Below, piece by piece: positions 1 to 62,925 of a stretch of DNA of 64,000 bases. This DNA is from Eledone cirrhosa (taxonomy: Eukaryota): contig OZ024749.1 of the NCBI GenBank assembly GCA_964016885.1, positions 2,976,001 to 3,040,000 of the forward strand. The letters run 5' to 3'. The first letter of the stretch is position 1, and every line of letters begins with the position of its first letter. Both the position numbers and the translations under genes were made by a program. The notes beneath the pieces are model-generated. The model had not been told where the DNA came from. It worked only from the letters and a program-made list of their open reading frames with translations, and did not search any database.

Positions 1-555
1 TCTCCAGTTAATTCAGCACGAGAAAAATCCCTTGAATCAAGGTTTCCGTTAAAGTTACACGTATTAAAACTAGAACGTTCTTCGTCGGTAGTGTCAGAAT
101 CCTGACACACAGGCATACAACGTAGTTAGTGTCCGAGCAGCCAATCCTGATAATACATTTTCAGCACACTATTGACGTTATTCTTATTATAGAAATATAT
201 TCGATTATATTAATAACTTATACCTTATATCTATGTAGATGTTAATCTTCCCACAACAAATAAATGCCCCAATGAATGCACAATTGCTTTTTCTCCCCCA
301 TTTACCTCTAACATTATATCTTTATATTTCATCATGTTGTCTTCTGGTGTAGAAATAATCCCTGGAGACATAAAATTACTCTCCCGGCTATATCAAGTGT
401 TAGACTAACATATTACCTTATTGTACTGTGTTATTTGTTTAGCTGCTTCTTCACTTTGTAGACCTACATACATACATTTATACATATGAACATACACACA
501 TCTATTTAAGTTGCATTACTAACTTGTTGTTTGTTTCCTTTCCCTTGTTTTCTTC

Positions 556-659
556 TGTCCCGATAACTTAATTTAGTTATCACTCGCACTCATTTTAGGT
601 ATCTAGTCTTTAATGCGAAGAAATACCAACGTTAATCAGCAGACTACTGATGAAGGACA
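556..659 (+). ncRNA. Putative non-circularly permuted hammerhead-like ribozyme, copy 1 (all core elements intact)
   Basis: GGTA-TC-TAGTCT (598-609) ... TGCGA-A-GAAA-TACC (614-627) ... AGACTA-CTGATGA-A-GGACA (641-659); TGTCC (556-560) pairs with GGACA; homologous to 24414-24518 and 40580-40681 with compensatory changes. Confidence 0.7.
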
Positions 660-698
660 TTCCTGTTTGTTGGTTTATTTTTATTCATATATATATAG

Positions 699-842
<144 letters not shown>

Positions 843-865
843 GAATAAAAATAGACTAAGAAACA

Positions 866-928
<63 letters not shown>

Positions 929-1070
929 TATATATGTATATGTATATATATATGAATAAAAATAGACTAAGAAACAAGAATATATATATATATATATAGA
1001 ACGGGTAAAATTCCCGAGATCCATGGACGAGTTCTCTCCAGCGGTCATAACCATAAATAGTATACTTAAT

Positions 1071-4905: not shown

Positions 4906-5302
4906 GTAGGAGGTGAGTTTTATTGTAGTACAATAAAGCAATGCAGATATCGGATAAGAAGCACTCTACAGTTTGTAGGACTGGAGTATACATAATATAT
5001 AAGATCAAAAGATGGTTAAAGGAGTTCCATGTATTTTATTATGCGCATTTCAACAACAAACATCATCATGCAATAATATTTGTGTTTTCATCAGATAAAA
5101 CAGGAGAACATGATATGAAGGCTAAAAAACACTTGTGGATAGATATGTTGATTTAAAACTGCACTATCCACAAGTGTTTTTTAGCCTTCATATCATGTTC
5201 TCCTGTTTTATCTGATGAAAACACAAATATTATTGCATGATGATGTTTGTTTTTGAAATGCGCATAATAAAATACATGGAACGCCTTTAACCATCTTTTG
5301 AT

Positions 5303-6187: not shown

Positions 6188-6387
6188 TTATATATAAGTA
6201 TACACACGCATATACACACACACACATACACACACACACACACAGATATATATATATATATATATATAAATATATATATATATACATACATACAGATATT
6301 CATATATATATACACGCATGTTTAAATACATATTGCGTTGTGTCGGTATATGTATATATCTATAAACTGATCCCTATATATATATAT

Positions 6388-6547
6388 AGGAACGAGTAGG
6401 ACCCCGACGGCTGAGCTCAAGCCGTTTCGACGGCTTGAGCTCAGCCGTCGGGGTCCTACTCGTTCCTATTACCCACTCTACTACCCTAAGTATTGAGTAC
6501 TTTGGTGCGTTATGTCCATCTGGTTCCTTACCACATTTCCTTCGTTA
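6388..6547 (+). mobile_element. Fold-back repeat family A (other copies 13693-13890, 19030-19222, 24568-24725)
   Basis: ~80-bp palindrome followed by shared tail TTACCCACTCTACTACCCTAAG...CATTTCCTTCGTT; contains the hammerhead 3' half (GAAA)CGGCTTGAGCTCAGCCGTC. Confidence 0.8.
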
Positions 6548-19732: not shown

Positions 19733-20193
19733 TATTAAAATACAAATATTAATAAAATAGATGGTCTTTTGATCAATTAAATTGTATTATACATATTTCA
19801 GAGGTACAACAGTATGTCCTCATCAGACAAGATATAATCAACGTTTTTCTTACTCATACATCCTCTATTGAATTTATTACGTTTTCCCATTTCTCATTAT
19901 TAGTGTATACATGTTGAGTTTTCTCTTAGGTTAATCACTACCTTGATTAAATCTTAACCATTTAACATCTCAGGCTATGTCATGTATCATTATATTTTGT
20001 CTGATGAGGACGTAGTGGTGTACCTCTGAAATATGTATAATGAAATTTTAATGATCAAAAGAGCATCTATTTTATTAATATTTGTATTTTAATATTAAAA
20101 GATCTTGAGAAAATATTTTTTAACTGTAGAGTGCTTCACATCTACTGTAAAAGTCATTCTTTGATGTACTCATCGATTCTTGTTTAACTCTTT

Positions 20194-23974: not shown

Positions 23975-24555
23975 AGAGAGAGCGAAAAGACACGTCTTAG
24001 CTGTAGCAGTGTTAGCGAGAAAAGAGGTTGCGTACAGCGGTGGACGAGGGAGGTAGTGAGCCAGCGAGGAGAGAGGATGACTAACAGAGAGAGAGAGTGA
24101 GTGAAAGTAAGAGGGAGCGAGAAAGAGATAGCTATAGTGGGAGGCTAGCCGAGAGGTGACTAGCAGAGGAGTTGTGCGGAAGTAAGAGGGAGAAAGAGAG
24201 AGAAGGCGTAGAGAGGGAGGGTAGCAGTAAAGCAGCCTCTTTTCTCGCTAACACTGCTACGGCTAAGACGTGTCTTTTCTCTCTCGTCAACATTCTCCCG
24301 TTCTTATGTTCGACATGAGTTGTTGACTTGATAATTTTCCTAATTTTCCTCTCTACGTTGCTCACCCTTCGTGTCTGTTAACATGTCCCCCCCCAACCCC
24401 AACCCCTTCCTTTTATCCCAATAACTTATTTTAGTTACTGTTTCGCCCTAGGCTGAGGTATATTGTCTCTAACGCGAAGAAATACCAATGATTCCTAGGA
24501 GACTACTGATTTCGGATACTCCTCTCTTTCGCCCGTAACTTTTATTTTTGATTAT
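23975..24555 (+). mobile_element. Element with 5' inverted segment (23975-24031 / 24232-24285) ending in the permuted hammerhead motif
   Basis: AAAAGACACGTCTTAGCTGTAGCAGTGTTAGCGAGAAAAGAGG mirrored; TA flank on the right. Confidence 0.6.
24414..24518 (+). ncRNA. Permuted hammerhead-like motif, copy 2 (core decayed to CTGATTT)
   Basis: TATCC..TTCGC-CCTAGG..GGTA-TA-TTGTCTC..GCGAA-GAAA-TACC..CCTAGG-AGACTA-CTGATTT-C-GGATA. Confidence 0.65.
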
Positions 24556-24567
24556 ATATATATATAT

Positions 24568-24725
24568 AGGAAGCCGTTTCGACTCAGTCCAGAAATAGCC
24601 CTCGAAACGGCTCGAGCTCTGTCGTCGGGGTTAAACATTTTCCTATTACCCACTCTACTACCCTAAGTATTGAGCACTCTGGTGCATTATGGCCCATCTG
24701 GTTCCTTACCACATTTCCTTCGTTT
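24568..24725 (+). mobile_element. Fold-back repeat family A, diverged copy
   Basis: GCCGTTTCGA..TCGAAACGGCTCGAGCTCTGTCGTCGGGG plus the shared tail. Confidence 0.75.
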
Positions 24726-25465: not shown

Positions 25466-25730
25466 TAAAATAACAGATTAAAGTTTAAGCAGAGAATCGC
25501 TGCTTTCACACTTAACGGGATCTTCTGAAACTAACCTTAGTTACTAACTAAGTTACTAACTAGGGTTAGTTTCAGAAGATCCCGTTAAGGGTTAAAGCAG
25601 CGATTCTTTGCTTAAACTTTAATCTGTTATTTAATAAATATTTGCTCTACGGTTCTTATATATTTGATATATATTTTCCTTATCGAGCCCTCTTTGGATT
25701 TTAGTCTTCAATTTTATTATTATTACTATA
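25463..25730 (+). mobile_element. Fold-back repeat family B (other copies ~1770-1868 + and 54683-54840 -)
   Basis: Arms 25463-25545 / 25558-25638; shared tail TTTGCTCTACGGTTCTTATATATTTGATAT...CTCTTTGGATTTT..TCAAATTTATTATTATTACT. Confidence 0.8.
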
Positions 25731-29132: not shown

Positions 29133-29905
29133 GAAGTATATTTATTGATAATAACAACAATTCAAAATATCAGTTCAAAATTGACCAATGAAAACACAAA
29201 GGGTTAAAAAGCAGTTTGGTGTGTGTATATACATGTAAAAACCTTACATATATTTTACAATAATGTGTGTATAATTTGTATGTGCATACTAAAAAGATGG
29301 ATGCAAATACAAAATTTCAAGGTTAATATCTCTGTAAGCTTAATGCGCTGATAAGATACGCAATGATACTTATGGAGTCAAGCATATAAATATATTTTTT
29401 TCATACTCACACATATCAGTATAATCACACATACATGTGCGTATATGTATAAATATACACATAACCACAAACATACAAACACACACACTCCCCCACTCAC
29501 ATTTATATATGTGGATATAAAATCATAAGCAAATAGAAATTAAGTCACTCACATAAAAACACTGGTACACACATTTCAAGATCAAGATACAGAAATTAGG
29601 TGGGAGGGGGGGGGGAGGGGTCAGTATTAGATTGTCAGACCAGACAGCCTAATATAAATGTATCTATAAATTAAGAAAAATAAAAAAATAAAAACAATAA
29701 AATATAATACATATAATATAATGTACATACGCATACAGATATACATACACATACATACATGTACGCGCACATAGAGATATCTACACATACATACATACAC
29801 ACATACCTATACTGTCATACACACACATACATTTACACGAACATACACATACACATATAAAAAGATATAAATACACACACACACACGCGCAACACATACA
29901 CACAT

Positions 29906-29942
<37 letters not shown>

Positions 29943-30296
29943 TATACACACACACATAGACTCATATATATATACATACATATACATACACATATACAAA
30001 CATATATATCCCCACACTCATACCACCATAAAAACACATACAAACACCCAGATGTATATATATATATATATATATATACATATATCAACATACACACACG
30101 TACACATATATGTATATATACATACATATATACACACATACACATATATATATACACACACACATAAAATACAGACATGCACATATATATATATATATAT
30201 ATATTTCATTACTCTTATATATACACATAGTATATATACATACACAACCTCACTTATACACATATACACATAAGTTATATTACAATAATAATAAAG

Positions 30297-30343
<47 letters not shown>

Positions 30344-30470
30344 TACACATATACATACATATATATACATACACATACATACATACACATACATACATAC
30401 ACCTAAATATATACATATATAAATACACACATACGAATAAAGACATATATTCACACATAGACACCTATAT

Positions 30471-30506
<36 letters not shown>

Positions 30507-32336
30507 ATATACACACACATACACATATATACACATATATATATATACACACATACACACACACACACACACACAGACACACATACACACTCACACATAT
30601 ATATATATATATATATGTGTATGTGAGTGTGCGCAAATACATATATATATACACACACACATACAAACACACACAAACACATACATATGCATACGTGCAC
30701 ACACACACACATATATCACATAGATACGAAGATAAACATATAAATAGAGAGACATACAAATATATACAGAACCCATATACACATACATACAAACACGCAT
30801 ATACATATATATACATATATACACATATATATATTCCTATATACAAGCATACACATACACACACATATATACATATACATACACATATACATACCACACA
30901 TTCACATACACATACATATATAATACATATATATACATATATATACATACATATGTATGTACAATCATATATACACACTCAATCTTACATTCATATTTAC
31001 ATGCTCATATATGTATTTTTATATTTAGAAATAAATACCAAAACCTATATAGACACCCATCTACACATATATTCATACATATACGCTTACAAAAACAGAT
31101 GATAATAGTATGGGGGAAAGGGGGGGTTTGGAGAAGGGGATCAAAGTAAATATATGTTTCAAGAAACATATAATATTTTCCATATCTTAATTCAATGTAT
31201 GTTCTTACATATTTTCAGTGCTAGGAAATACGAAATCTATGCATCACAAAATAAAAAAGTATACCATTAATCATATGTTAACTAAACCAAAGATAGTCAA
31301 CATATTGATTTCCAAGGTGTAAATTAGTTAGGTTTATAATATTTGAAGCAGAATTATGAAGTCAAACAGTAGTAGATTATTAATTACATTATAACTAAAT
31401 TAAAGTTAATAACGTTATGGTATCAATATTAGAAGATGAATTTAGTAATAGGGAAAAGAAACCCAAATAAAAATAAAATAAAGTATTACATCGGTAGTAG
31501 CATATAAATTATATGTTAACTAAATTAAAAATTATATATTTATTTCAATAGTATACGTTAATTAGTATATGTTAATTAGGTATACAATACATAAAGCAGA
31601 TATTGTATTTCATCAATAGCATAATATAATTATATGCAAATAAAAATCAAAATTAATACGCATACATATACATATACATACACATACACATACATATACA
31701 TATACATACACATATATATATATATATATACATATATATACACATACATACATATATAGTCACATAAATATACATACAGATACACATACAACACACACAT
31801 ATACATATACATATAGATATACATATCTTTTTCAAAAAATTGCACAGAATATATTAACTAGGTATATATCCAAAACACCTCCCATTCTATGATTACATGA
31901 CATTCTGCAATTCGTCTGTACAAGGATACTAATTTTAAGCAAATTAAAATTAAAGTTTTAGGTTGATTAAAACTAAAACCAAATAATAAATATATTTCCA
32001 AAATGTATATTAATTAGGTCTATAATACTAAAAATTCTTTCTCCGTCATAGGATACATGATATTATTTTGTTATATTTTATCTGTAAAAGAATTATAATA
32101 AAAAAAAAAAAAAAATTATAATAAAAGGTTAAACTAAATTAAAAAATTATAATAAAAGGTTAAAATAAGTTAAAATTAATCTATAAATTAAATTACTGAA
32201 TATATATTAGTAATATTTAAAGGTTTTTCAAAATTTATGATTACATAATATTTTCTCATCTGTAATAAAATATTAATTAAATTAAATTTATAGGTTAACT
32301 AACATTTAAATTAAATTAAATTCTAGAATAATGTTA

Positions 32337-33290
32337 TTAATTAGGTTTATAATATTTAAATGTTTTTTTTAGTTTATGATTACACGATATAATTAATTCC
32401 TGTCTTTTATTTAATAAGATATCCCTAGACTTCATTATTTCAAATAGTTCTTGGGAACATAATCTACATTCCTTTCTATTATTTTGATAAGGGGTGGCTC
32501 TTTTGAGCACACTCCAGGTCAAATCATATTTTATATTTTTATTTTTATAACTATTGATTTTTTCTGCTAGAGATGTTGTATTAGCCAGTGCGGCATTTTT
32601 AAAGCTATGTTTGTGGGTATTATACCTTGTCTTAAAATTGTTAGAGGTAGCTCCTATATATGAGCAAATAGAATCTTTAGTTTTAACATTACATTTATAG
32701 ACTATGTTGTTAACAAGACAATTCCCTTTTAATGGGCAGTTTGTTTTGTTTCTACAGTTACATCCTTTCGTTAATTCTGTATTTGAGGAGATATTATTGT
32801 TAATTTGATGTACTGGTGGTATACTTATGGTTTTCTTACATTTATATGCATTATATGCACTTATATTTTGTTTTATGTTATTTGTTGTAGAGTATGAGAA
32901 TTTAACTGTAGACCTATTTAAGATTTGATGGTATTTGTGGTTTGGCGGGAAGTTTTTCTCAAGGATATAAAAAAATTTTTTAGCAATATTATCCTTAACT
33001 TGTAAATTAAAAGGAGCATTATACCAAGTAACTCGTCTATTACGGTTTCTATGTTGTTTATTATTTTTATTATTTTTATATGTTGTATCATGATTTTTAC
33101 TAGGAGGAATAATGTTAATGATCTCACCACAACTATTTTTAGTTATATTTGTAGATTTAGGTGTTTTATCTTTTTTATTAGGAGTTTTATTATTAATATT
33201 TATTATAGTCGTATGATGAGTAGTTTTTTGAGGGTTACTATACTTTATATTAGAAGATTTGTGCGTATTAATTTTGATTTTTATTTGCAT
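32337..33290 (-). CDS. PLE linker plus GIY-YIG endonuclease without RT (Hydra-clade-like), uninterrupted 317-aa frame
   Basis: RRVTWYNAPF..FPPNHKYHQILNRSTVKFSYS linker, CNCRNKTNCPL, IVYKC...YIGAT, RYNTHKHSF, CRLC, LLNKRQELIISCNH; the start codon lies in the inverted arm, so expression is unproven. Confidence 0.8.
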   Translation of the reverse strand: MQIKIKINTHKSSNIKYSNPQKTTHHTTIININNKTPNKKDKTPKSTNITKNSCGEIINIIPPSKNHDTTYKNNKNNKQHRNRNRRVTWYNAPFNLQVKDNIAKKFFYILEKNFPPNHKYHQILNRSTVKFSYSTTNNIKQNISAYNAYKCKKTISIPPVHQINNNISSNTELTKGCNCRNKTNCPLKGNCLVNNIVYKCNVKTKDSICSYIGATSNNFKTRYNTHKHSFKNAALANTTSLAEKINSYKNKNIKYDLTWSVLKRATPYQNNRKECRLCSQELFEIMKSRDILLNKRQELIISCNHKLKKTFKYYKPN

Positions 33291-34417
33291 ATAATTATAT
33301 TATGCTATTGATGAAATACAATATCTGCTTTATGTATTGTATACCTAATTAACATATACTAATTAACGTATACTATTGAAATAAATATATAATTTTTAAT
33401 TTAGTTAACATATAATTTATATGCTACTACCGATGTAATACTTTATTTTATTTTTATTTGGGTTTCTTTTCCCTATTACTAAATTCATCTTCTAATATTG
33501 ATACCATAACGTTATTAACTTTAATTTAGTTATAATGTAATTAATAATCTACTACTGTTTGACTTCATAATTCTGCTTCAAATATTATAAACCTAACTAA
33601 TTTACACCTTGGAAATCAATATGTTGACTATCTTTGGTTTAGTTAACATATGATTAATGGTATACTTTTTTATTTTGTGATGCATAGATTTCGTATTTCC
33701 TAGCACTGAAAATATGTAAGAACATACATTGAATTAAGATATGGAAAATATTATATGTTTCTTGAAACATATATTTACTTTGATCCCCTTCTCCAACCCC
33801 CCCCTTTCCCCCATACTATTATCATCTGTTTTTGTAAGCGTATATGTATGAATATATGTGTAGATGGGTGTCTATATAGGTTTTGGTATTTATTTCTAAA
33901 TATAAAAATACATATATGAGCATGTAAATATGAATGTAAGATTGAGTGTGTATATATGATTGTACATACATATGTATGTATATATATGTATATATATGTA
34001 TTATATATGTATGTGTATGTGAATGTGTGGTATGTATATGTGTATGTATATGTATATATGTGTGTGTATGTGTATGCTTGTATATAGGAATATATATATG
34101 TGTATATATGTATATATATGTATATGCGTGTTTGTATGTATGTGTATATGGGTTCTGTATATATTTGTATGTCTCTCTATTTATATGTTTATCTTCGTAT
34201 CTATGTGATATATGTGTGTGTGTGTGCACGTATGCATATGTATGTGTTTGTGTGTGTTTGTATGTGTGTGTGTATATATATATGTATTTGCGCACACTCA
34301 CATACACATATATATATATATATATGTGTGAGTGTGTATGTGTGTCTGTGTGTGTGTGTGTGTGTGTATGTGTGTATATATATATATGTGTATATATGTG
34401 TATGTGTGTGTATATAG

Positions 34418-34449
<32 letters not shown>

Positions 34450-34576
34450 ATATAGGTGTCTATGTGTGAATATATGTCTTTATTCGTATGTGTGTATTTA
34501 TATATGTATATATTTAGGTGTATGTATGTATGTGTATGTATGTATGTGTATGTATATATATGTATGTATATGTGTA

Positions 34577-34625
<49 letters not shown>

Positions 34626-34979
34626 CTTTATTATTATTGTAATATAACTTATGTGTATATGTGTATAAGTGAGGTTGTGTATGTATATATACTATGTGTA
34701 TATATAAGAGTAATGAAATATATATATATATATATATATGTGCATGTCTGTATTTTATGTGTGTGTGTATATATATATGTGTATGTGTGTATATATGTAT
34801 GTATATATACATATATGTGTACGTGTGTGTATGTTGATATATGTATATATATATATATATATATATACATCTGGGTGTTTGTATGTGTTTTTATGGTGGT
34901 ATGAGTGTGGGGATATATATGTTTGTATATGTGTATGTATATGTATGTATATATATATGAGTCTATGTGTGTGTGTATA

Positions 34980-35020
<41 letters not shown>

Positions 35021-35791
35021 ATGTGTGTATGTGTTGCGCGTGTGTGTGTGTGTATTTATATCTTTTTATATGTGTATGTGTATGTTCGTGTAAATGTATG
35101 TGTGTGTATGACAGTATAGGTATGTGTGTATGTATGTATGTGTAGATATCTCTATGTGCGCGTACATGTATGTATGTGTATGTATATCTGTATGCGTATG
35201 TACATTATATTATATGTATTATATTTTATTGTTTTTATTTTTTTATTTTTCTTAATTTATAGATACATTTATATTAGGCTGTCTGGTCTGACAATCTAAT
35301 ACTGACCCCCCCCCCCCCTCCCACCTAATTTCTGTATCTTGATCTTGAAATGTGTGTACCAGTGTTTTTATGTGAGTGACTTAATTTCTATTTGCTTATG
35401 ATTTTATATCCACATATATAAATGTGAGTGGGGGAGTGTGTGTGTTTGTATGTTTGTGGTTATGTGTATATTTATACATATACGCACATGTATGTGTGAT
35501 TATACTGATATGTGTGAGTATGAAAAAAATATATTTATATGCTTGACTCCATAAGTATCATTGCGTATCTTATCAGCGCATTAAGCTTACAGAGATATTA
35601 ACCTTGAAATTTTGTATTTGCATCCATCTTTTTAGTATGCACATACAAATTATACACACATTATTGTAAAATATATGTAAGGTTTTTACATGTATATACA
35701 CACACCAAACTGCTTTTTAACCCTTTGTGTTTTCATTGGTCAATTTTGAACTGATATTTTGAATTGTTGTTATTATCAATAAATATACTTC

Positions 35792-35940
35792 ATTATTTCT
35801 GAAGACGGCGTATATATGAGTTAGGTATGTATATTTAATCTTGATAATTTGTATAATTTTGTATAATTTTGTACATAGATCTGTTAAATATGCATACCAA
35901 TTATAACACATATATACCCTAGAAACGATCGTTAAATAGT
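35792..35940 (+). ncRNA. Type I hammerhead with long stem II, right arm
   Basis: ATTATTT-CTGAAGA...CCTA-GAAA-CGATCG-TT-AAATAGT. Confidence 0.7.
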
Positions 35941-36701
35941 GAACTTTTTTTGTTTAATATAAGGAATTGTTTGTTCATTATTTGTTTAATATTTTATCTT
36001 GACTCTGTATACCGTTTATCTTTCACCGAAATTGGATTTTCATTACATCTCTTCTTTCCATGATATCCGGAATACATTGAGTTCTTCATACGGATTGGAC
36101 ACTACCGTAAACTCTTGGTAGATTTATCTACATATATATATATATATATATTTACCTAAATCATATATATATATATAGATATATATATATATATACTCTG
36201 TCGTATCGAGTGAGTGGAATAGACATATATTTAATTGCAAGAAACTTCCAAGAATCTACGCTGTAATGAATAGTTTGGAAACACAGGTTTTTGTGAGCGC
36301 TATAAAAATGAAGGTTATATACACTAAAAGGAAAGCGTGAAATAAAATTATATGAAGGAATCTTAAAACTACGTTCTGGACAGATAGTTATTTTTCTTTC
36401 GTGTGTGTAGTATTTAGTGATGCTTTTACTTATTTTATTTAGAGAGTTTTTAGTTTTATTATTTAATTTTCTTTTTGCTCTGGTTACGTGATTTATGTGG
36501 GTTTTGTGGTTTTGTGGTTTTGTGGTTTTGGTTTACAGTTAAGGTGGCTAAGTTTTCCAAGTTTTATGTCCTGCTAGTGGAGTACGTGGTGCAGATTTAT
36601 ATAGTAAAACGGCTGCAGTGAAAGAATTGGAGAGAAAATTAACTAAAATTGATGATGGTACACATACATGAAAGAAATGTTACGAGATTTCTATCTAAAC
36701 G

Positions 36702-36737
<36 letters not shown>

Positions 36738-36859
36738 TACATTTATATATACATATATATATATATGTATATGTATATATATATATATGTATATACACAT
36801 ACATATATATATATGTATATATATATGTGTATATATACATACACCCCCACCCCCCAATA

Positions 36860-36904
<45 letters not shown>

Positions 36905-40023: not shown

Positions 40024-40579
40024 TATGTCATTTATGTCATTTATCTTTTTCTGACCTGTTTAGCTTGACTTGTTTTTTTGTGGTTAGGTGGTTAATGGCT
40101 TCTTGACTGCCTTCTCAGTTTGTATGGCCTTTATAACCTTTGTTTATTGCTCTGGTCTTTTTTAGCCCATGTAGCGCTTGCTGGCATGGCTCAGAATTTG
40201 CGTTACGTTTCGCTTTTTCTACCCGTCGAAATGCGATTCTCGCTGAATTTATACTTGTATATATAAATATATATATATATGAAAAATGGCGTGCTCCGTT
40301 GTTGTAAATGGAGTACATATGAATAACATTAGTCCTTCACAATTTCACTCACTCTCTCTCTCTGCTACTCCCCCTCTCTCACTTCCTCCCTTTTGACCTG
40401 TGTGAAATCATTTTCTCGCTCGCATCTCACCCAGTTCGGATGATTTGTATCTCTCCTCTATGTTTTCACCGAACTTAAGTTCACAGATATCACGGACTTG
40501 TTTTTCCTCTTCCTCTCTTTACGTTGCATTACCATCTCTGTTTGTTTACATGTCTCGCTCGCTTCACCCTATTTTACGT

Positions 40580-40681
40580 GTCCCAATAACTTTCTTTAGT
40601 TACTGCTCGCACCAACCAGACGTATATGATCTTTAATGTGAAGTAATACCAATGACGGTTGGAAGATCACTGATGAAGGAC
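40580..40681 (+). ncRNA. Permuted hammerhead-like motif, copy 3 (GAAA decayed to GTAA)
   Basis: GTCC..TCGCA-CCAACC..CGTA-TA-TGATCTT..TGTGA-A-GTAA-TACC..GGTTGG-AAGATCA-CTGATGA-A-GGAC. Confidence 0.65.
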
Positions 40682-40737
<56 letters not shown>

Positions 40738-40739
<2 letters not shown>

Positions 40740-43612
40740 GGGTAACAAATTATTGTTATATGTAGTCCACTTAGGTGTAGTCCAGTTATGGTACTCCGGG
40801 TAGTGGTTGATATCAACAAGTCGTTTCCATAGTGATGCTGCGAGTACGCTGTAATCCCTATGTTATAAACACTTGGAGTAATTATAAATTAGGAAAGAAG
40901 AGTGACACGGTTTGCTATACAAAAAAGGTTTTTAATCTCATTGCTGACAATTGTTTCTCTGAACTGGTAGGTCTAGAGATCCCTATCCGCTTATTTTCAC
41001 GTTACTCGATCGCCAATACAAAGTTATAACCAGTCAGTTCATCGGAGCTTGCGAGAATGAAAAGAATATACAGGCATGAAAAGAATATACAGGCTACTAT
41101 ATGTAGTAGTAATGGCATTCGGTCAGAACAATAACAACAATATCAACAATGCTAGCAATAAATTATTTGAAATAATCACAACATCAATCTAGGTGGGAAG
41201 TATAGTATATCTATGATTTTAGCGTGTAAAACTAGCTGAGATGAGGCAGATGTATAAAATTGACATGTAAAAACTGTCGTAGGGTGTATTATATCAAGTG
41301 TAAAGATAAGCTGGTGTTTTTAAACAATGTAGGTCAGGTGGCCGTAATAGTCGGTTTTTATCTGACCTATGAAGGATTTATCACTGTAGTGGAATGTGTG
41401 TGGTCTATATAAATGAGAGGGCTGTCTAGCTTACTCATCATCAATAACATACATGTATAAGACAACATTAACAAAGAAGTTAAATAATGGGCAAGTTAAT
41501 ACAGAAGTTAAGGAGGCAATATATATATATATATATACATACACACATACACACAAACATATATATATATATACACATACACATACATACATACATACAT
41601 ACATACAAAGAGAAAACATTCTGACTATAATTATAGTAGGAGGAAGGTAAAGTTCTGTTGTAGTAGTATTTTGAAATGTTCTTGGATTTAGGATCAAGTG
41701 CTGACAGCAGCTGAGAAGAGATAAGTTTATGGGTTAATGAGGTACTTACAGACATTAGTGTGGTATATAACTAAGAAGGCTAGAATGTACTTAATCATTA
41801 TATTTCTGTGGTGATCCGTGCAGAGTAGTGGGTATCCTAGTTGAAAGCTATGTCACGTCGGTTCGATTCACGGAGGTTTAAATCTTATGAATTTAGTGGC
41901 AATTTTGTGTCTGCAGAAGATAGATCTTTCTAACTTGTTGTTAAGTAGCCTTGTTACATTTCTAAGGATATACAGTAGTTCTAGATCACATAGCCTACAG
42001 TGGGACATACCTGTACTGTAGGCTTTAGCAGCCGACAACCTCAGCCAGTTGATACTGTAGCTAGTGTTGCTGTCTTTCAGTTCCCATATTTTTTTGGCGA
42101 GGGTTGTAGAACCCAACAACAAATTGCAAAATGACATCAATACACTACTAAAAAAACTAAAAGACACTAACGATATCATAGTAAAAGCAGACAAAACATC
42201 AAACGTATACTCTATGGACCTTAACACATACACTAATTTTATCCAGCGTGAACTACATAAAAAATATAAAAAAAACAAATGAATTTACACTCACCAGCAT
42301 TAACGTGGAGGGCCTCAGGATAGTAAATATACTCGGAATTCCCGATAGGACCGAGCCTCTAACCCCATGCAACCCCACATTTAACCTGAAGGACCACAAA
42401 AAAAATGTTGAAACAAACCCTACTATTAGATTAATATGCCCATCCAAGTCAGACATAGGCAAAATAAGAAAGAACATTCTAGATAGGGTAATCGCACAAA
42501 TAAAGGGTAAACTAGAAATCAATTTATGGGGTAACACTAACGAGGCAATTGAATGGTTCAATAAAATACAAAATAGGGAGACGGGTAACTTAATACAATT
42601 TGATATAGACGAATACTATGCATCCATATCCCCAGCCACCCTAGATAAAGCGCTTATATTTGCCCCAAATAACTCCGATTTGTGACCTACATTCCGCGGG
42701 CTCACATACATTCTCTGTGCGTGATTTGGCTCAGCTCAGCCAATCAGCGCCAGTAGAAGAGGATGTATCCCTACGCGTTCTGAGGGAGAAATAGCCCGCA
42801 AAGATTTGAGGACGCTATGACTCGCAGCTGGACCATGCTAAAGTAAACACCGCTTGTTCTTTTGCTCCATAAGCACAAACAATATGTAACGACAAAACAT
42901 TATCTACGAGCCTGGCCAAACGCCTTCAGCCAGTCGCCCGTATTTTCTCTTGTAATCTTAATTGAATTGTTTCATTTCTCTTGGCATGCCAGCTTAATTC
43001 CCTTCTCAACCTTTGTTAATAAATAATGTAAAAACAAGCTAAAAGTCGTTGTCGATATACGCTATCATATCTTTCTACCAAACCTGGTTCCTCGTGGCAA
43101 CTTTACAACAACTTCTAAAATATACTTCTCCGCTAAATCTGGTGACAACACTCTATCTACCAAATTGGTGACTTATATTCAACAAAGAGAAACATACCTT
43201 TCCTTTACACCCTACGACAGTTTTTACATGTCAATTTTATACATCTGCCTCATCTCAGCTAGTTTTACACGCTAAAATCATAGATATACTATACTTCTCA
43301 CCTAGATTGATGTTGTGATTATTTCAAATAATTTATTGCTAGCATTGTTGATATTGTTGTTATTGTTCTGACTGAATGCCATTACTATTACATATAGTAG
43401 CCTGTATGTTATTTTCATGCCTGTATATTCTTTTCATTCTCGAAAGCTCCGATGAACTGACTGGTTATAACTTTCTATTGGCGATCGAGTAACGTGAAAA
43501 TAAGCGGATAGCGATCTCTAGACCTACCAGTTCAGAGAAACAATTGTCAGCAATGAGATTAAAAACCATTTTGGTATAGCAAACCGTGTCACTTTTCTTT
43601 CCTGATTTATTA
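40738..43612. mobile_element. Rearranged Hydra-clade-like PLE: ~400-bp inverted arms (40882-41288 / 43206-43610), EN C-terminus on minus, RT N-terminus on plus
   Basis: 41868-42105 (-): TTLAKKIWELKD..CRLCDLE..LLNNKLERSIFCRH; 42107-42685 (+): IVKADKTSNVY, LKDHK..PTIRLICPSKSDIGKI, FDIDEYYASI. Confidence 0.85.
43446..43551 (+). ncRNA. Type I hammerhead with CCGAUGA core (mirror copy 40943-41048, minus)
   Basis: GCT-CCGATGA-A-CTGACTGGT...ACCAGTTCAG-A-GAAA-CAATTG-TC-AGC. Confidence 0.7.
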
Positions 43613-47232: not shown

Positions 47233-47292
47233 GTATACAATACTTCTATTAAACTACACATTTCTTCACACACATATATATATATATATATA

Positions 47293-49588
47293 TAATCAAA
47301 CCGGCGGACAAGGGAGGCGCCGTGGTGGTGTGGCACGCGGACCTCTACACGGCCGAAGCCCTCAGGCAGCCCCGTAACCCCCTCTTCTACCGCCCTCTAC
47401 CCTCCCATCCCACACCCCTCTACCAACAACAAATTTCCTCCACCATCCAACACCTTGTCTCCTCCTCCCCCCAACGCTTCCCACCTCATTGGCCGCACCC
47501 CCCGCACCCCCCGCACCCCCACCATCTACTTCCTCCCCAAACTCCACAAACCCGACAACCCCGGCCGCCTCATCGTCTCCGCTTGCAACTGCCCCACCGA
47601 ACTCATCTCCGCGTTTTTGACTCCATCCTCGCCCCCTTCTCACCACCCTCCCCTCCCATATCTCCGACACCAACCACGCCCTGCGCCTCTTCGACCCCTT
47701 CACATACCCACCCGGACCACAGCCCTTCCCATTCACCCTAGACATCAAGTCTCTCTATACCGTCATCCCCCACGCCAACGGCCTACGCGCCCTCAAGCAC
47801 TACCTCGACCTTCGCCCCTCCGACATCCCTTCCACCCCACCCTCCTTCACCTCGCCGAGCTGGTCCTCACCATCAACTGTTACTCCTTCTCGGGTGAGTT
47901 TTATCAACAGGTCACGGGGGTAGCCATGGGTACAAGAATGGGCCCAAACTATGCCAACCTTTTTGTTGGCCATGTTGTGGCCCAAATCTTTGCCCAGTAC
48001 ACCGGCCCCACGCCCGAACTGTACTGTTGTTACATCGACCACTGTATCGGACCCACGACCCTCACCCGAGAACAGCTCGACTCCTTTCTCTCCTTCTTCT
48101 GCTCCTTCCACCCCTCCCTCCATTTCGGACAGACGGAACGTCACCTGGCGGACCGGTTTACTGAACACATCCGATATATTCGTCTCGGTGGTAGTTCCCC
48201 CATCGCCCCCTAATTTGGTACCCATGGACATTCCGCACTCCACCTCACAGTCTGTGGCCTACTCCAATGCCACGGAACACCCGCCACTCTCCTCAGGGTC
48301 GAACAACGAACCATCTTCACCCTACAGACCCACACTTCCCCCTGCCTGAACTCCCCACCCTTATTCCTTTAGCCTTCGACCACCCCCTCCCCCACATATA
48401 TCCCCCAGTAACACCACTAAGACCTCCACGGCACACAAGACCACCCTTCCCCAACTAACACCCACTAACACCCCCCTTACCACACACCCACTCATCCAAA
48501 CACGCACACACACACCAGTACACTACACTCCCTCCACCGGCCCACACTCCCTTCTCTCCCCGCTCCACCCACACCCTTTCTCACACACACACACACATCC
48601 CACTAACACCTCTACTAACACACACACCCTCCTCACTCCAACTTTCACACCTACCCATCCTCTCCCCTGTTCTCCGCACCTCCGCACACACTGACACACC
48701 GACTTTCTTCACTTACCATTCTACCCGACTGCTGCTATGCCCTTATCTCTGACCACCTCCCCGCACACACAGACACACAACCTTCCTTCTGCCTTGACCC
48801 TCTGACCACTGCGTGTTGCGCGCGCACCCCACATCTCCCATCTTCTGACAAATCTCTTCACGGATTACACATAGGTGAACATCGATCCCTAGAATCCACC
48901 ACATCCCAAGGATATTACCCAGCATTCCACCACATCCTCTACGGAACTACCTTAAGGACTCACCCACTGACATACACTCAAACATTTTTTTCCCACACGC
49001 CCCCTACATCCACAACACGCATAAACACCACACACGTGCATACCACCACATATTTACACACACAGCCTCCGGAATCCTCTCCCCCACCCCTCTGACCCAT
49101 CCCCATCCACACACGCACACACACTCCGACCTACACCCCACCCACACACACCTCTTCCTGAACATGCAATCCCGTTCTTCCCCTAACTCTTACTTTCACA
49201 TACACACACACACACACGTACACCTACACACACCACCTTCAGCCCTCCCCGCTCGGACACTCCGCCTGCCTCTCCACACTCCACCCGCCCCCACCCCCAC
49301 CCGCCCCACATTATTCCACCACCTATTTTACTTCATGTTTATTTCATATTTATCATGCTTTTATATTTAATTTCATTTGTACCGTTTCCTCTCACCCCCT
49401 TTTTTCTATATGTCTCTCCACCACTCCCCAACACACCCTTGGAACTCTCTTCCCACACACTTTTCACCTGAAGAAGGGCTTATGCCCCAAACGTCGTTCC
49501 CCACCACCACCCCACTCTCAAGAGCGTGAAACTAATAAACCTTTATTCGTACTGCCTCTCTGTTTTGTTCCCGTTCAATTTTTTACTA
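47293..49588 (+). mobile_element. C-rich PLE (Neptune-like), 5'-truncated and frameshifted, with a deletion from RT into EN; long C/A-rich 3' UTR
   Basis: [80 protein letters not shown]; decayed hammerhead CTGAAGA-AGGGCTTATGCCC-CAAA-CGTC at 49468-49495. Confidence 0.9.
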
Positions 49589-51678: not shown

Positions 51679-51733
51679 ACTGCCTGAAGAGGTCACAGCC
51701 AAAGATGGCTGTCACCGAAATATATATAGCAGT
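51679..51733 (+). ncRNA. Minimal type I hammerhead at the end of a short element (~51465-51780)
   Basis: ACTGC-CTGAAGA-GGTC-ACAGCCA-AAGA-TGGCTGT-CACC-GAAA-TATATA-TA-GCAGT. Confidence 0.85.
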
Positions 51734-52221: not shown

Positions 52222-54610
52222 TATAAAATGATAAAACAATAATAATTAAACAAGCAGATAAAGGGGGTGCAGTTGTTATATTGGATGCTGAATACTACAA
52301 GGATTTGGTTGAGGTACAACTGAAAGATACAACATTCTATCATGAAATACCGTCAAATATAGACCACAACATCATGAAGAACATCAACAACCTGGCTTCA
52401 AAATACCACAACTCACTTACTTATAAGGAAAGAGACTACATCCCCAATTTTGAGCCGAAACCCAGCAACCTGTATGGCCTACCGAAAGTTCATAAGTCAA
52501 AAGAAATACAACTGGCAGTAAGAGAACAAAACAGTGAGTACATTAAATTACTACACCCAAAAGACTGACATCTTAGACCTATTATAGCTGGTCCAACATG
52601 CCCCACCCATCGTCTAGGCAATTTCGTTGACATTATTTTGAAACCACTATGTATTCACATACCCAGTTTCATCCGGGATGATATTGACTTCCTGTCCCAT
52701 CTTCCCCAAACCACGGAAACTAATTCACTTCTACTTAGTTTTGATGTGGTAAGCTTTTACACCAACATTACCCATGATTTAGGAATAAAGGCGGTTAAAT
52801 ACTGGGTGGAAAAACATAGAGAAGTGATTCCCATCAGATTCACAGCGCCATTTATATTAGACACAGTTAAACTTATTCTGGAAAACAACACTTTTTTCTT
52901 CAATGGAAAGAATTACATCCAAATTAGAGGCACAGCGATGGGAACGAAGTTTGCTCCCGTTTACGCGAACTCTGTAATGGGATACTTAGAACAACAACTC
53001 TACCAAGAAATGGAGGAAAAATATAGTATTAACTTTAGAAAGTACATTGAAAAATCTTGGAAGAGATACCTTGACGACTGTTTCATCATCTGGACAGAAT
53101 CTCTAGATACTCTGGATGAGTTCAATATCCTCCTGAATAACCTACACCCATCTCTCCAATTCACAAAAGAGATGAGTAGTACCAAATTACCATTCCTAGA
53201 TATAATGATAATCAAAAACGACACCACCATTACGACGGATATATATTATAAACACACAGACACCCATCAATATCTGAATTTTAAGTCGTGCCATCCACCT
53301 CATACAAAACGCAACATCCCATACTGTCTAGCCGGAAGAATTGGTACCATTGTAGAATATACGAATACCAGGTACAAACGCCTAAGAGAATGTTTGCTCA
53401 AACAAAAATACCCATCTCTACTTATAGAAAATGGCATACAGCGGGCTATAAAAATACCTATACAACAACTTAGGACAACCCAAGGAAGAAGAAACCAAGA
53501 ACTGGTCATACCATTTAAAATGACACACAACTCATGTCACCAGAATATCTTCAACACTGCCAGAGCAAACCTACCGATCATTGCTCAAAGTAATGAATTA
53601 AAAGGCTTAATCACAGATAGATCTTTGACTCTTAGTAAAAGACAGCCGAAAAATTTGAAGCAATTACTAACAAAAGCAAAGTTTGACCTTAACAACAAAG
53701 ACCAATTATTCACTGTATCTAAATGCAATAATAGTCGATGTGGCACATGTCAATCCATACACGCCGGTCAATATATGTAAACAAAAACTGGAAAAATATT
53801 CCCAAATGCAAATATCAACTGCAAAAGTAGAAATTTAATTTACTGCATTAAATGCCCGAATTGTGAAGAACTATAGGTCAAACTGGAAATGCACTATCGG
53901 AACGTGCACAGGTACACCGACAGCAAGTCAGATACCCCTAAGTAACCATCTAGTAACATGTGGTCAGGGAATATATATAATATTCCCATTCTACAAATTA
54001 CACAGCCCAATTGAAATCAAGAGAAAAATCAAAGAAAATAATTTTATTGATTAATTCAAACCCATGTTAAATGAACATATAATGGGATGTAATCCAACTA
54101 TGACTATGACTACGACCACTAACAACAACAACAATATTAATAATACAAGTGATGTTGATGGTGATGATTACTAGAAAATGCTATTGTCATCATTTCTAAA
54201 AATAGCAAAACAATTGATGCTTTGGATAGGGTCAATTAGTAGTCGTTAGACATGCTCAACCAACAGTGACGCCTAAACCAATCAGCTTTAGTAATCCAGT
54301 GAAACTACACACCGATTGGTCGAAATACATTTTGCATAAATTAGCATTCTTTAGCCACTTTTCACTGTATATAAGGCACAAAATTTACCCACCCCATTAC
54401 AGTTGAAAATTGCAAACTTGACTGTTACTACACAGTATGAACCTGAAGATTGCGAAAGCATGAAAGTACTTGTTCAATTAACACTTAACATTTAATATTC
54501 TACCATTATAAATTTTAAAGGATTGTAAATAAAACGAGTAAATCAGACAAAGTTGGAATTCCTTTTATTAATATAATCTTCTATACACAATCATACACAC
54601 CCGTGTATAC
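52222..54610 (+). mobile_element. PLE (Neptune-like) with nearly complete RT and degenerate GIY-YIG, 3' UTR and hammerhead
   Basis: [105 protein letters not shown]; stops and frameshifts. Confidence 0.92.
54438..54476 (+). ncRNA. Very small type I hammerhead (39 nt)
   Basis: TGAAC-CTGAAGA-T-TGC-GAAA-GCA-T-GAAA-GTAC-TT-GTTCA. Confidence 0.7.
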
Positions 54611-56520: not shown

Positions 56521-56860
56521 TGCAAAAGTTATATTTAAAGTTGTTGGGATACAACAAGTAAATATTTTTATAACTGATATAAAGCACTCGACACATTTTT
56601 GGAGTAGATATACGATATTAATAAATGGAAACTATATTTATAAAACCATATTTATTTCATTATACATATTTCAGGGATACCACATTAAATTAAAGTAATG
56701 GTTGTATTTTAAAGGGTACGTCAAACCTATTTGTAAAACTGTTATATATTGTATTTTGTCTGATGAAGGCATACCATAATTTAATGTGGTATCCCTGAAA
56801 TATGTATAATGAAATAAATATGGTTTTATAAATATAGTTTCCATTTATTAATATCGTATA
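56521..56860. mobile_element. Inverted-arm PLE 3'-end element with hammerhead 56752-56816 (+)
   Basis: Arms 56607-56692 / ~56776-56860; TATTTTGT-CTGATGA-AGGCATACCATA..TGTGGTATCCCT-GAAA-TATGTA-TA-ATGAAATA. Confidence 0.8.
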
Positions 56861-61880: not shown

Positions 61881-61915
61881 CTTACGCAAACAGAAGAAGA
61901 TAGCCCCAAACCTCT

Positions 61916-61986
61916 ATAGATAGCGATAACATAGGGGATGAACTAACCGGTAGACACAACCCGGGAGGGACACCTGATCCAACATA

Positions 61987-62052
<66 letters not shown>

Positions 62053-62925
62053 ACACAGACGACAGAATAGGACAAGGTCTAAGACAATTCCGTGGTTTAA
62101 CGCGTCGTATTCGAAGCATGTATGCAACAACGTTCCAGGCCTCTTCTTCGGAGCGTTGGACGAGTGCTTCCCGCCATCGAACAGATACCACAGGATAATC
62201 AACCGCCACACAGTGAAGTCCTCCTTCTCCTTGGCCAAAACCAATTCGGTGAAGTTGGGGAAACTCGACCGCCAACTGCGGCAGACACCTGGAGGCCCAC
62301 TTGGAGACAGGGCTTTCAACTATGGTCCGGTCCCCACAATGGCCGGCACACCTGTGGAAGACGCAGTAATCGGCTACCAGGTGGAACTAAATGACGGAGG
62401 GAAGCATACCGGACCGACAGAACAACACCCAGAGAATCGCGGGAACGCCGTAATACGGCCAGGACGCAGCGTAAGGAATGAGCAACATAACGACGGAGAA
62501 TGCAACAGTCCGCACACAATGCCCTCTGCAGGGAAGATGCCTAACGAAGGGCGTAGTTTATAAATGTGTGGTTAGCACGCACAACACCAAGCGCAACTAC
62601 ATCGGCGCAGCATCGACGACCTTTAAACCGGGGATGTACAATCACACAAACTCTTTCAAGGACAGGAGCAAGAGACACTCCACTAGGCTGGTTGACCTAA
62701 TATGTGACTTGAAGGACACCAGCACCCCGTATGATCTCAACCGGAAAATCGTTCAACATGCCAGTGCATATTCGGCCGGCGAGAGGAAGTGCAGGCTATG
62801 CCTCTCCGAGGCCATGGAGATAGTGTGATTAAAGGATGACGCAGTCAACCTGAAATCGGAGATTATCATGACATGCAGACACCAGAGAAGGTGCACATTC
62901 TCCGAATAGGCACCACCGGAGGGCC
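61916..62925 (+). pseudogene. Hydra-clade-like PLE linker plus GIY-YIG without RT, preceded by (ACT)n
   Basis: KTIPWFNASYS..FPPSNRYHRIINRHTVKSSFS; QCPLQGRCLTKGVVYKC..YIGAAS..CRLCLSE..NLKSEIIMTCRH; frameshift and stop. Confidence 0.85.

Follow-up and report, generated by a model that had tools for sequence, protein, structure and literature searches.

The window (the whole 64-kb stretch of DNA that was analysed) contains three copies of a hammerhead motif, all on the plus strand, each carried by a truncated insertion of a repeat family and each with inverted companions. The core is built from three blocks that follow one another in the order S-G-C, and the 5' strand of stem II is separated from block C. 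Core positions (A9, 10.1, 11.1, H17) follow conventional hammerhead numbering. The features are as follows.

556..659, plus strand: copy 1 of the split-stem-II S-G-C hammerhead motif, with complete core letters; predicted cleavage at 603/604
556-560/655-659, plus strand: copy 1 closing helix, adjoining A9 as an inserted helix
562-581, plus strand: copy 1 hairpin, the other inserted helix beside A9 (5' segment 556..581)
584-588/614-618, plus strand: copy 1 stem II, TCGCA/TGCGA, with its 5' strand displaced
589-594/634-639, plus strand: copy 1 tying (extra) helix between stems I and II, directly 3' of the stem II 5' strand, with one C-C mismatch
598..609, plus strand: copy 1 block S (stem III 3' strand, UH at 602-603, stem I 3' strand)
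598-602/623-627, plus strand: copy 1 stem III
604-609/641-646, plus strand: copy 1 stem I
614..627, plus strand: copy 1 block G (stem II 3' strand, position 11.1 at 619, GAAA at 620-623, stem III 5' strand)
641..654, plus strand: copy 1 block C (stem I 5' strand, CTGATGA at 647-653, one extra base at 654)
505..688, plus strand: copy 1 insertion, 5'-truncated, of a ~550-nt family, ending in (TA)n; 92-93% identity to a natural monomer (locus L008)
841..869, minus strand: inverted tail fragment of the copy 1 family (monomer positions 57-85)
952..980, minus strand: another inverted tail fragment of the copy 1 family
24414..24518, plus strand: copy 2 of the motif, CTGATGA changed to CTGATTT; predicted site 24462/24463
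24230..24556, plus strand: copy 2 insertion, 5'-truncated, of a ~585-nt family; 85-86% identity to a monomer (locus L154)
23978..24226, minus strand: inverted body segment 5' of the copy 2 insertion (Penelope-type inversion)
40580..40681, plus strand: copy 3 of the motif, GAAA changed to GTAA, and the first pair of stem III broken; predicted site 40626/40627
40337..40690, plus strand: copy 3 insertion, 5'-truncated, of a ~520-nt family, ending in (TA)n; 86-90% identity to a monomer (locus L363)
40265..40337, minus strand: inverted ribozyme-end and tail fragment 5' of the copy 3 insertion

The coordinates and block order of the three copies, together with every helix named in the original prediction, are present in the sequence. 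Copy 1 retains all core residues (CTGATGA, GAAA and UH) and 33 of its 34 pairs, its tying helix being imperfect through the C-C mismatch, both as predicted; 64 copies of its family were aligned. The families of copies 2 and 3 retain a complete core, and the core changes in these two copies are therefore decay of single copies. Runs of (TA)n start ~28, 36 and 7 nt after copies 1, 2 and 3, respectively. A covariance model of the motif found exactly three matches in the window (E<1e-31), all three of them among its training rows. The comparison with Rfam suggested together with the original prediction gave, among the best 150 of 384 matches in the window, only repeat-driven microRNA matches and no hammerhead family, and seven clean copies compared at E<=10 yielded three snoRNA matches far under threshold and likewise no hammerhead family.

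Core fold and covariation

The linker between stem I and stem II is 4-5 nt long, and a six-pair helix joins the far ends of these two stems. The 5' strand of stem II lies ~70 nt upstream of CUGANGA; the chain exits the core after A9 and one further base into the closing helix and the hairpin, with a four-way junction at the foot of stem II, and a 3-nt join connects the old 3' end to block S. Stem II had been thought to be replaced by a multi-helix junction. The junction exists, but the TCGC/GCGA helix is stem II itself with its 5' strand moved upstream. By analogy with the SGC mutants described in the available part of PMC10085705, the tying helix may fill the role of the loop contact that links stem I to stem II.

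Majority sequences of 17 families were derived from 314 aligned near-full copies (14 clusters of at least three copies plus three groups picked by the motif). CUGANGA, GAAA and UH are intact in all 17 majorities and in 245 of the 314 copies, and H17 is only ever C or A in the 17 families. Pairing across these families extends to 102/102 cells in stem I, 85/85 in stem III, 100/102 in the six-pair tying helix and 67/68 in the four inner pairs of the TCGC/GCGA helix. Among the 660 cells of 20 natural copies chosen as representatives, 95.3% are paired, and changes on both sides occur in 20 of the 33 pairs; these counts represent non-independent events because the families are related, with the changes lying on different branches of the family tree. 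Two-sided changes affect 5/6 pairs of stem I, 2/5 of stem III, 2/4 of stem II, 5/6 of the tying helix, 4/7 of the hairpin and 1/4 of the closing helix. Shuffles gave 83.4% paired cells and 12.0 two-sided pairs, with 0/500 reaching the observed values, and controls with slid partners reached at most 48.5% paired. The G-U intermediates favour the plus strand. Folding free of pseudoknots recovers parts of the model and gives competing folds. Between five families the ribozyme is 68-88% identical, compared with 51-70% for the monomer body. We conclude that the hammerhead fold is real, strongly covarying and under selection, and that the non-circular order originally proposed holds, with the core present in every family majority and covariation in all six helices.

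The motif is abundant in the 3.0-Gb genome to which the window belongs. First-look candidates numbered 1,148 for copy 1, 1,014 for copy 2 and 2,610 for copy 3. Of two exact 13-mers that run from stem II through GAAA into stem III, one has 8,408 occurrences and the other 3,215, compared with 7 and 17 when the strings are reversed as controls. All 29 distinct matches to the more frequent 13-mer in the first 30 loci are the motif, two of them 5'-truncated. A relaxed pattern detected further families, with 2,197 matches against 128 in the control, some of which are unrelated; two such matches in loci L444-L446 were discarded as unrelated on inspection. A structural descriptor of the S-G-C layout returned 189 matches in 1.64 Mb of loci (both strands), all of those shown being the motif, and none in 0.37 Mb of shuffled sequence. 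Pattern scans of metagenome and viral contigs produced at least 120 and 3 stretches, respectively, with block S in place in 0 of 123.

The corner of the core around positions 9, 10.1 and 11.1 varies. Position 11.1 and the base after A9 form a standard pair in 12 of 17 families, with four pair types represented, and are A-A or C-A in five, including all three window families; G-C at 11.1 occurs in a single family. The G10.1-C11.1 pair is thus mostly lost. The helix that precedes GAAA has 4-5 pairs, covaries in two of four and has its partner strand upstream. In an old genomic copy (L448), 36 of 37 positions pair, including a G10.1-C11.1 pair supplied by the upstream strand. One family, represented at L415, L416, L428, L430, L433, L436, L438 and L443, has C before GAAA and G directly after A9; to judge from these letters it could form G10.1-C11.1 plus a second pair, which makes it the foremost candidate for rapid cleavage.

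Penelope hammerheads usually have an additional base between positions 9 and 10.1, and the insertion may for that reason have entered at a tolerant corner; G10.1-C11.1 itself is described as highly conserved in Penelope hammerheads. According to the parts of the sources available, cleavage occurs in natural hammerheads whose stem II has a single pair or begins with U-U (Perreault 2011, PMC3088659), and weak-stem-II hammerheads of some fungal viruses cleave slowly (PMC13725137). In these, and in Hydra-clade hammerheads (Craig File S2), a weak or non-G-C first pair of stem II is tolerated as it may be here, although all of them are circular types lacking a four-way junction, whereas the present motif is non-circular and has one. 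Given the A-A or C-A in place of G10.1-C11.1, cleavage in the three window families is probably slow or protein-assisted.

Relation to described hammerheads

Hammerhead types I-III in Rfam share the cyclic order C-G-S, which the S-G-C order of the motif does not match. The first non-circular permutations of a natural RNA were reported by Eckert 2023 (PMC10085705), and what follows on that work refers to its available parts. They stem from environmental sequence of unknown organisms, namely metatranscriptomes, metagenomes and one weak bacterial candidate, with type SGC confined to metatranscriptomes; the validated SGC ribozymes cleave. None is given from any animal, contrary to the original prediction, in which non-circular hammerheads were taken to have been reported in animals already. 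Within the full-text literature the term 'type-SGC' appears only in that paper, and the same literature, which largely excludes subscription journals, describes neither a split stem II nor non-circular hammerheads, whether in animal genomes, Naiads or retrozymes. The accessible portion of PMC10162972 has nothing on non-circular hammerheads, and those of PMC7229834, PMC4209133, PMC11167929 and Li et al. 2026 (10.64898/2026.07.22.740005) describe type I motifs. As far as these sources extend, animals are a host class where non-circular hammerheads were unknown.

Type SGC resembles the present motif in its S-G-C order, short linker between stems I and II, helix between these stems, with strands that run on from the 5' strand of each, and extra base after A9. 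In SGC-1, as judged from the oligonucleotides in the supplement of PMC10085705, a strand of the tying helix comes after the 5' strand of stem II, and the partner strand precedes stem I; the connectivity of the motif is the same if TCGC(A) is taken as the 5' strand of stem II. The two differ in that stem II of type SGC comes directly after CUGANGA, with at most 1-2 inserted bases, and starts with G-C, whereas the motif has the strand upstream and two inserted helices. The list of six layouts in the same paper assumes that CUGANGA and its stem II strand stay together, leaving block C uninterrupted. Being SGC-like but failing this requirement of an unbroken block C, the motif represents a new variant wiring. 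It also could not have been found by the published patterns, since these require CUGAUGA(U)G with stem II and CGAAA. Comparison with published permuted hammerheads, which had been recommended alongside the original prediction, therefore matches the order to type SGC, but the wiring differs through the interruption of block C. Type CSG, known in PMC10085705 from two similar metagenomic sequences, has the same cyclic block order as the motif; its stem II is contiguous and its chain is opened at another place.

Carrier repeats and Penelope-like elements

The motif occurs once per monomer in pyrimidine-rich non-coding repeats. Fifty distinct natural monomers, measured from site to site, are 445-679 nt long, and the longest Met-started frame in five representative monomers spans 46-134 codons. 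Monomers form head-to-tail arrays of up to at least four units; within an array they diverge by 2-7%, about as much as loci diverge from one another. The inserts are 5'-truncated, often with an inverted copy on the 5' side, and end in (TA)n. Membership in a retroelement family, as first proposed, is supported by the tandem repeats, the insertion at (TA)n and the thousands of genomic copies.

In 198 of 302 cases the alignment's 3' end falls downstream of the predicted site by 62-134 nt, mostly at TA-like letters, a rough count that includes ends caused by divergence. Their position suggests a template in which the site was uncut or re-joined and on which reverse transcription started inside, and internal initiation has been shown for the Penelope-like element PAc. 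The 5' ends are scattered, 1 of the 39 between -16 and +11 falling exactly at the predicted site, which argues that a cleaved linear monomer is not the usual template. Full-length 5' ends were also considered as marks of the cleavage site and were rejected, there being no pile-up at the site.

An internal anchor ~200 nt into the monomer occurs 53 times in one family. A motif fragment precedes it in 13 of these cases, and 12 of the 13 fragments stop precisely at the predicted scissile bond, the two sides of the joint having no letters in common. This is the only recurrent break between -100 and +20. The site-ending fragment and the 5'-shortened monomer joined to it have been amplified together as one longer unit; the rearranged subfamily was seen at loci L071, L072, L075-L077, L083, L087, L123, L130, L134 and L359. 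Upstream marks common to the copies indicate a single founding event, and the rearrangement is therefore counted once; the tree is compatible with one origin, and a single event is probable. The joint is what a template jump or a ligation onto a cleaved 3' end would leave.

Reverse-transcriptase or endonuclease remnants occur near motifs; in the loci inspected for this (L310, L407, L447, L448 and L451-L453), none of them is joined to the motif. Neither a frame with N-terminal GIY-YIG and reverse transcriptase joined to the motif in the loci examined nor an autonomous element carrying the motif in this genome was found. The 5.2-kb spacing of three copies at L407, tried as an autonomous unit, proved to be a local duplication.

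The window also holds part of a young autonomous Penelope-like element (29722-36900, frame at 32337-33299 on the minus strand; see also loci L394 and L395). It has an 830-codon frame with the endonuclease at the C-terminus, ~6,054-bp tandem units and a 3.5-kb repeat-rich non-coding part, and 149 of the 150 matches listed are identical over 237 residues. Its hammerhead is an ordinary type I with a long stem II and a C-A first pair (L394, 6346-6500), and the element was rejected as the carrier of the motif on this ground. Other repeat families of the window have minimal type I hammerhead candidates at 2096-2153, 5208-5270, 5036-5098 (minus strand), 19997-20043, 51680-51732 and 56756-56812, one pair of them inverted. 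Further remnants of Penelope-like elements lie at 47253-48213, 52569-53780 (with a reverse transcriptase match at 52569-53777), 42185-42685 and 61904-62563. Near-perfect short inverted repeats beside (TA)n at 6387-6468, 24569-24640, 25489-25610 and 1389-1457 recur in many loci and are probably fold-back ends of other Penelope-type inserts.

The available part of Craig et al. 2021 (PMC8557442) states that canonical hammerheads are absent from Naiads, in which only 'HHR_core' or 'HHR_half_core' strings are flagged. Passages of the 54 Naiad consensus sequences in File S5 of that paper were compared with the motif by eye, a procedure that misses strings split at line ends. The same split layout, with the canonical G10.1-C11.1 and one extra base after A9, was recognized in this way in the Naiads of Octopus bimaculoides and O. 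vulgaris. It was also recognized with G10.1-C11.1 in three near-identical Acropora Naiads, whose linker letters are those seen here, in one consensus that is Clytia by file order, in two from Morbakka or Pomphorhynchus, and in one from Paralithodes or Darwinula, probably the crab. The layout appeared less clean in Beroe (short stem I) and Euprymna Naiads, and some arthropod motifs were difficult to read. Where seen, the motif sits near the 3' ends of the consensus sequences. Six other consensuses, three of them Nippostrongylus, appeared by eye to have type CSG with an unbroken stem II. In the passages inspected, the motif was not seen in bivalve, hemichordate or fish Naiads; at the place that the hammerhead occupies in other Naiads, the bivalve and hemichordate 3' ends have another conserved stretch, richer in G+C.

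The repeats share with Naiads the targeting of (TA)n, the tandem and inverted inserts and, by eye, the ribozyme layout, but Naiads are autonomous (PMC8557442, available part), whereas the repeats encode no enzyme and most have lost G10.1-C11.1. The (TA)n targets and the tandem and inverted inserts are shared with other Penelope-like clades and are therefore not diagnostic of Naiad; the same source describes a tandem, 5'-truncated and 5'-inverted insert arrangement for Penelope-like elements, and such an arrangement is on record for animal non-LTR retrozymes as well. The genome has 7 occurrences of a 14-base piece taken from the Octopus Naiad motif, against 11 for the control; of five loci inspected, three hold decayed true motifs and two are chance matches, and no Naiad reading frame was found beside the Octopus-like decayed copies. 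The pair on one contig (G000:C286, L452) lies in a degenerate minisatellite with units of roughly 50-90 nt that is unrelated to the motif. With the ribozyme layouts compared by eye, a link between the motif and the Naiad clade is likely.

Animal non-LTR retrozymes, as described in the parts available of Cervera and de la Pena 2020 (PMC7229834) and of Li et al. 2026, are similarly non-coding head-to-tail repeats with one hammerhead per monomer, and have been proposed to be non-autonomous derivatives of Penelope-like elements. They differ in being of type I and mostly 150-450 nt long, compared with the non-circular type and 445-679 nt found here; type I descriptors would miss the present repeats.

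Proposed mechanism and its alternatives

We favour, with a probability of about three in four, the interpretation that the motif is a self-cleaving S-G-C hammerhead with a split stem II, that each monomer of the non-autonomous, retrozyme-like repeats bears one copy of it, and that a Penelope-like element, most likely Naiad, mobilises these repeats. Head-to-tail transcripts would be cut once per monomer after UH, and the predicted products, with 2',3'-cyclic-phosphate and 5'-OH ends, would be able to close into circles. The reverse transcriptase of the element, a Penelope-type enzyme and probably that of Naiad, would start inside the RNA 60-135 nt downstream of the uncut or re-joined site, at a (TA)n nick, and copying for up to several rounds would give rise to tandem, truncated and inverted inserts.

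It is extremely improbable that short motifs of an AT-rich repeat came together by chance into an apparent core. The component motifs are short, and all 123 pattern matches in the metagenome and viral collections (at least 120 and 3) are unrelated chance occurrences, but covariation in all six helices refutes such an assembly for the motif, the descriptor finds nothing in shuffled sequence, and the same layout is seen by eye with unrelated letters in the Naiads of several phyla. The fold could be kept mainly as a binding or positioning signal for a Penelope-type reverse transcriptase/endonuclease, being derived from a hammerhead and having negligible self-cleavage, or none in families without G10.1-C11.1. 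In favour of such a signal, inserts nearly always carry an uncut motif and end downstream of it; in PAc, hammerhead cleavage needed protein, in vitro insertion could do without it, and none of the RNA reads had its end at the site. Cleavage by minimal Penelope hammerheads is poor, in vitro cleavage was lacking for 8 of 9 predicted frog retrozymes, and position 11.1 and the base after A9 vary freely among the present families. A role limited to binding nevertheless appears unlikely to us, since the catalytic letters, UH included, are invariant in 17/17 families while helices and monomer bodies drift, one amplified rearrangement has its break exactly at the predicted scissile bond, and the validated ribozymes of type SGC do cleave (PMC10085705, available part).

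A further possibility, somewhat doubtful but deserving more weight than a pure binding signal, is that the repeats are cut but never circularise, the arrays arising from linear read-through transcripts and template jumps. It would account for monomers within an array being about as divergent as monomers at different loci, and the rearrangement at the exact site is what a jump onto a free 3' end is expected to produce. Related animal retrozymes, however, accumulate as circles, and a circular template would be expected to give inserts longer than one unit whose 5' ends are scattered.

If cleavage by the split-stem-II hammerhead and its mobilisation through a Penelope-like element are taken together with the Naiad comparison, we consider it fairly probable that Naiads, which are dominant in many invertebrate genomes, are the main natural home of non-circular hammerheads. 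They would carry CSG in nematodes and, in cnidarians, crustaceans and cephalopods, an undescribed split-stem-II layout in which the chain is opened inside block C and the core has a four-way junction, and they would have given rise to a large derived family of circular-RNA retrozymes. There would then be a layout beyond the six permutations thought possible, with tens of thousands of genomic examples; the assumption of an unbroken block C is violated in >11,000 copies of one animal genome, and the natural variation is enough to map the tolerance of the core at the 9/10.1/11.1 corner. The repeats would also constitute a class of animal retrozymes overlooked by type I descriptors. If the cleavage is real, the published puzzle of Naiads thriving without hammerheads would be overturned, and the question of what the ribozyme does in Penelope-type transposition would become a sharper one.
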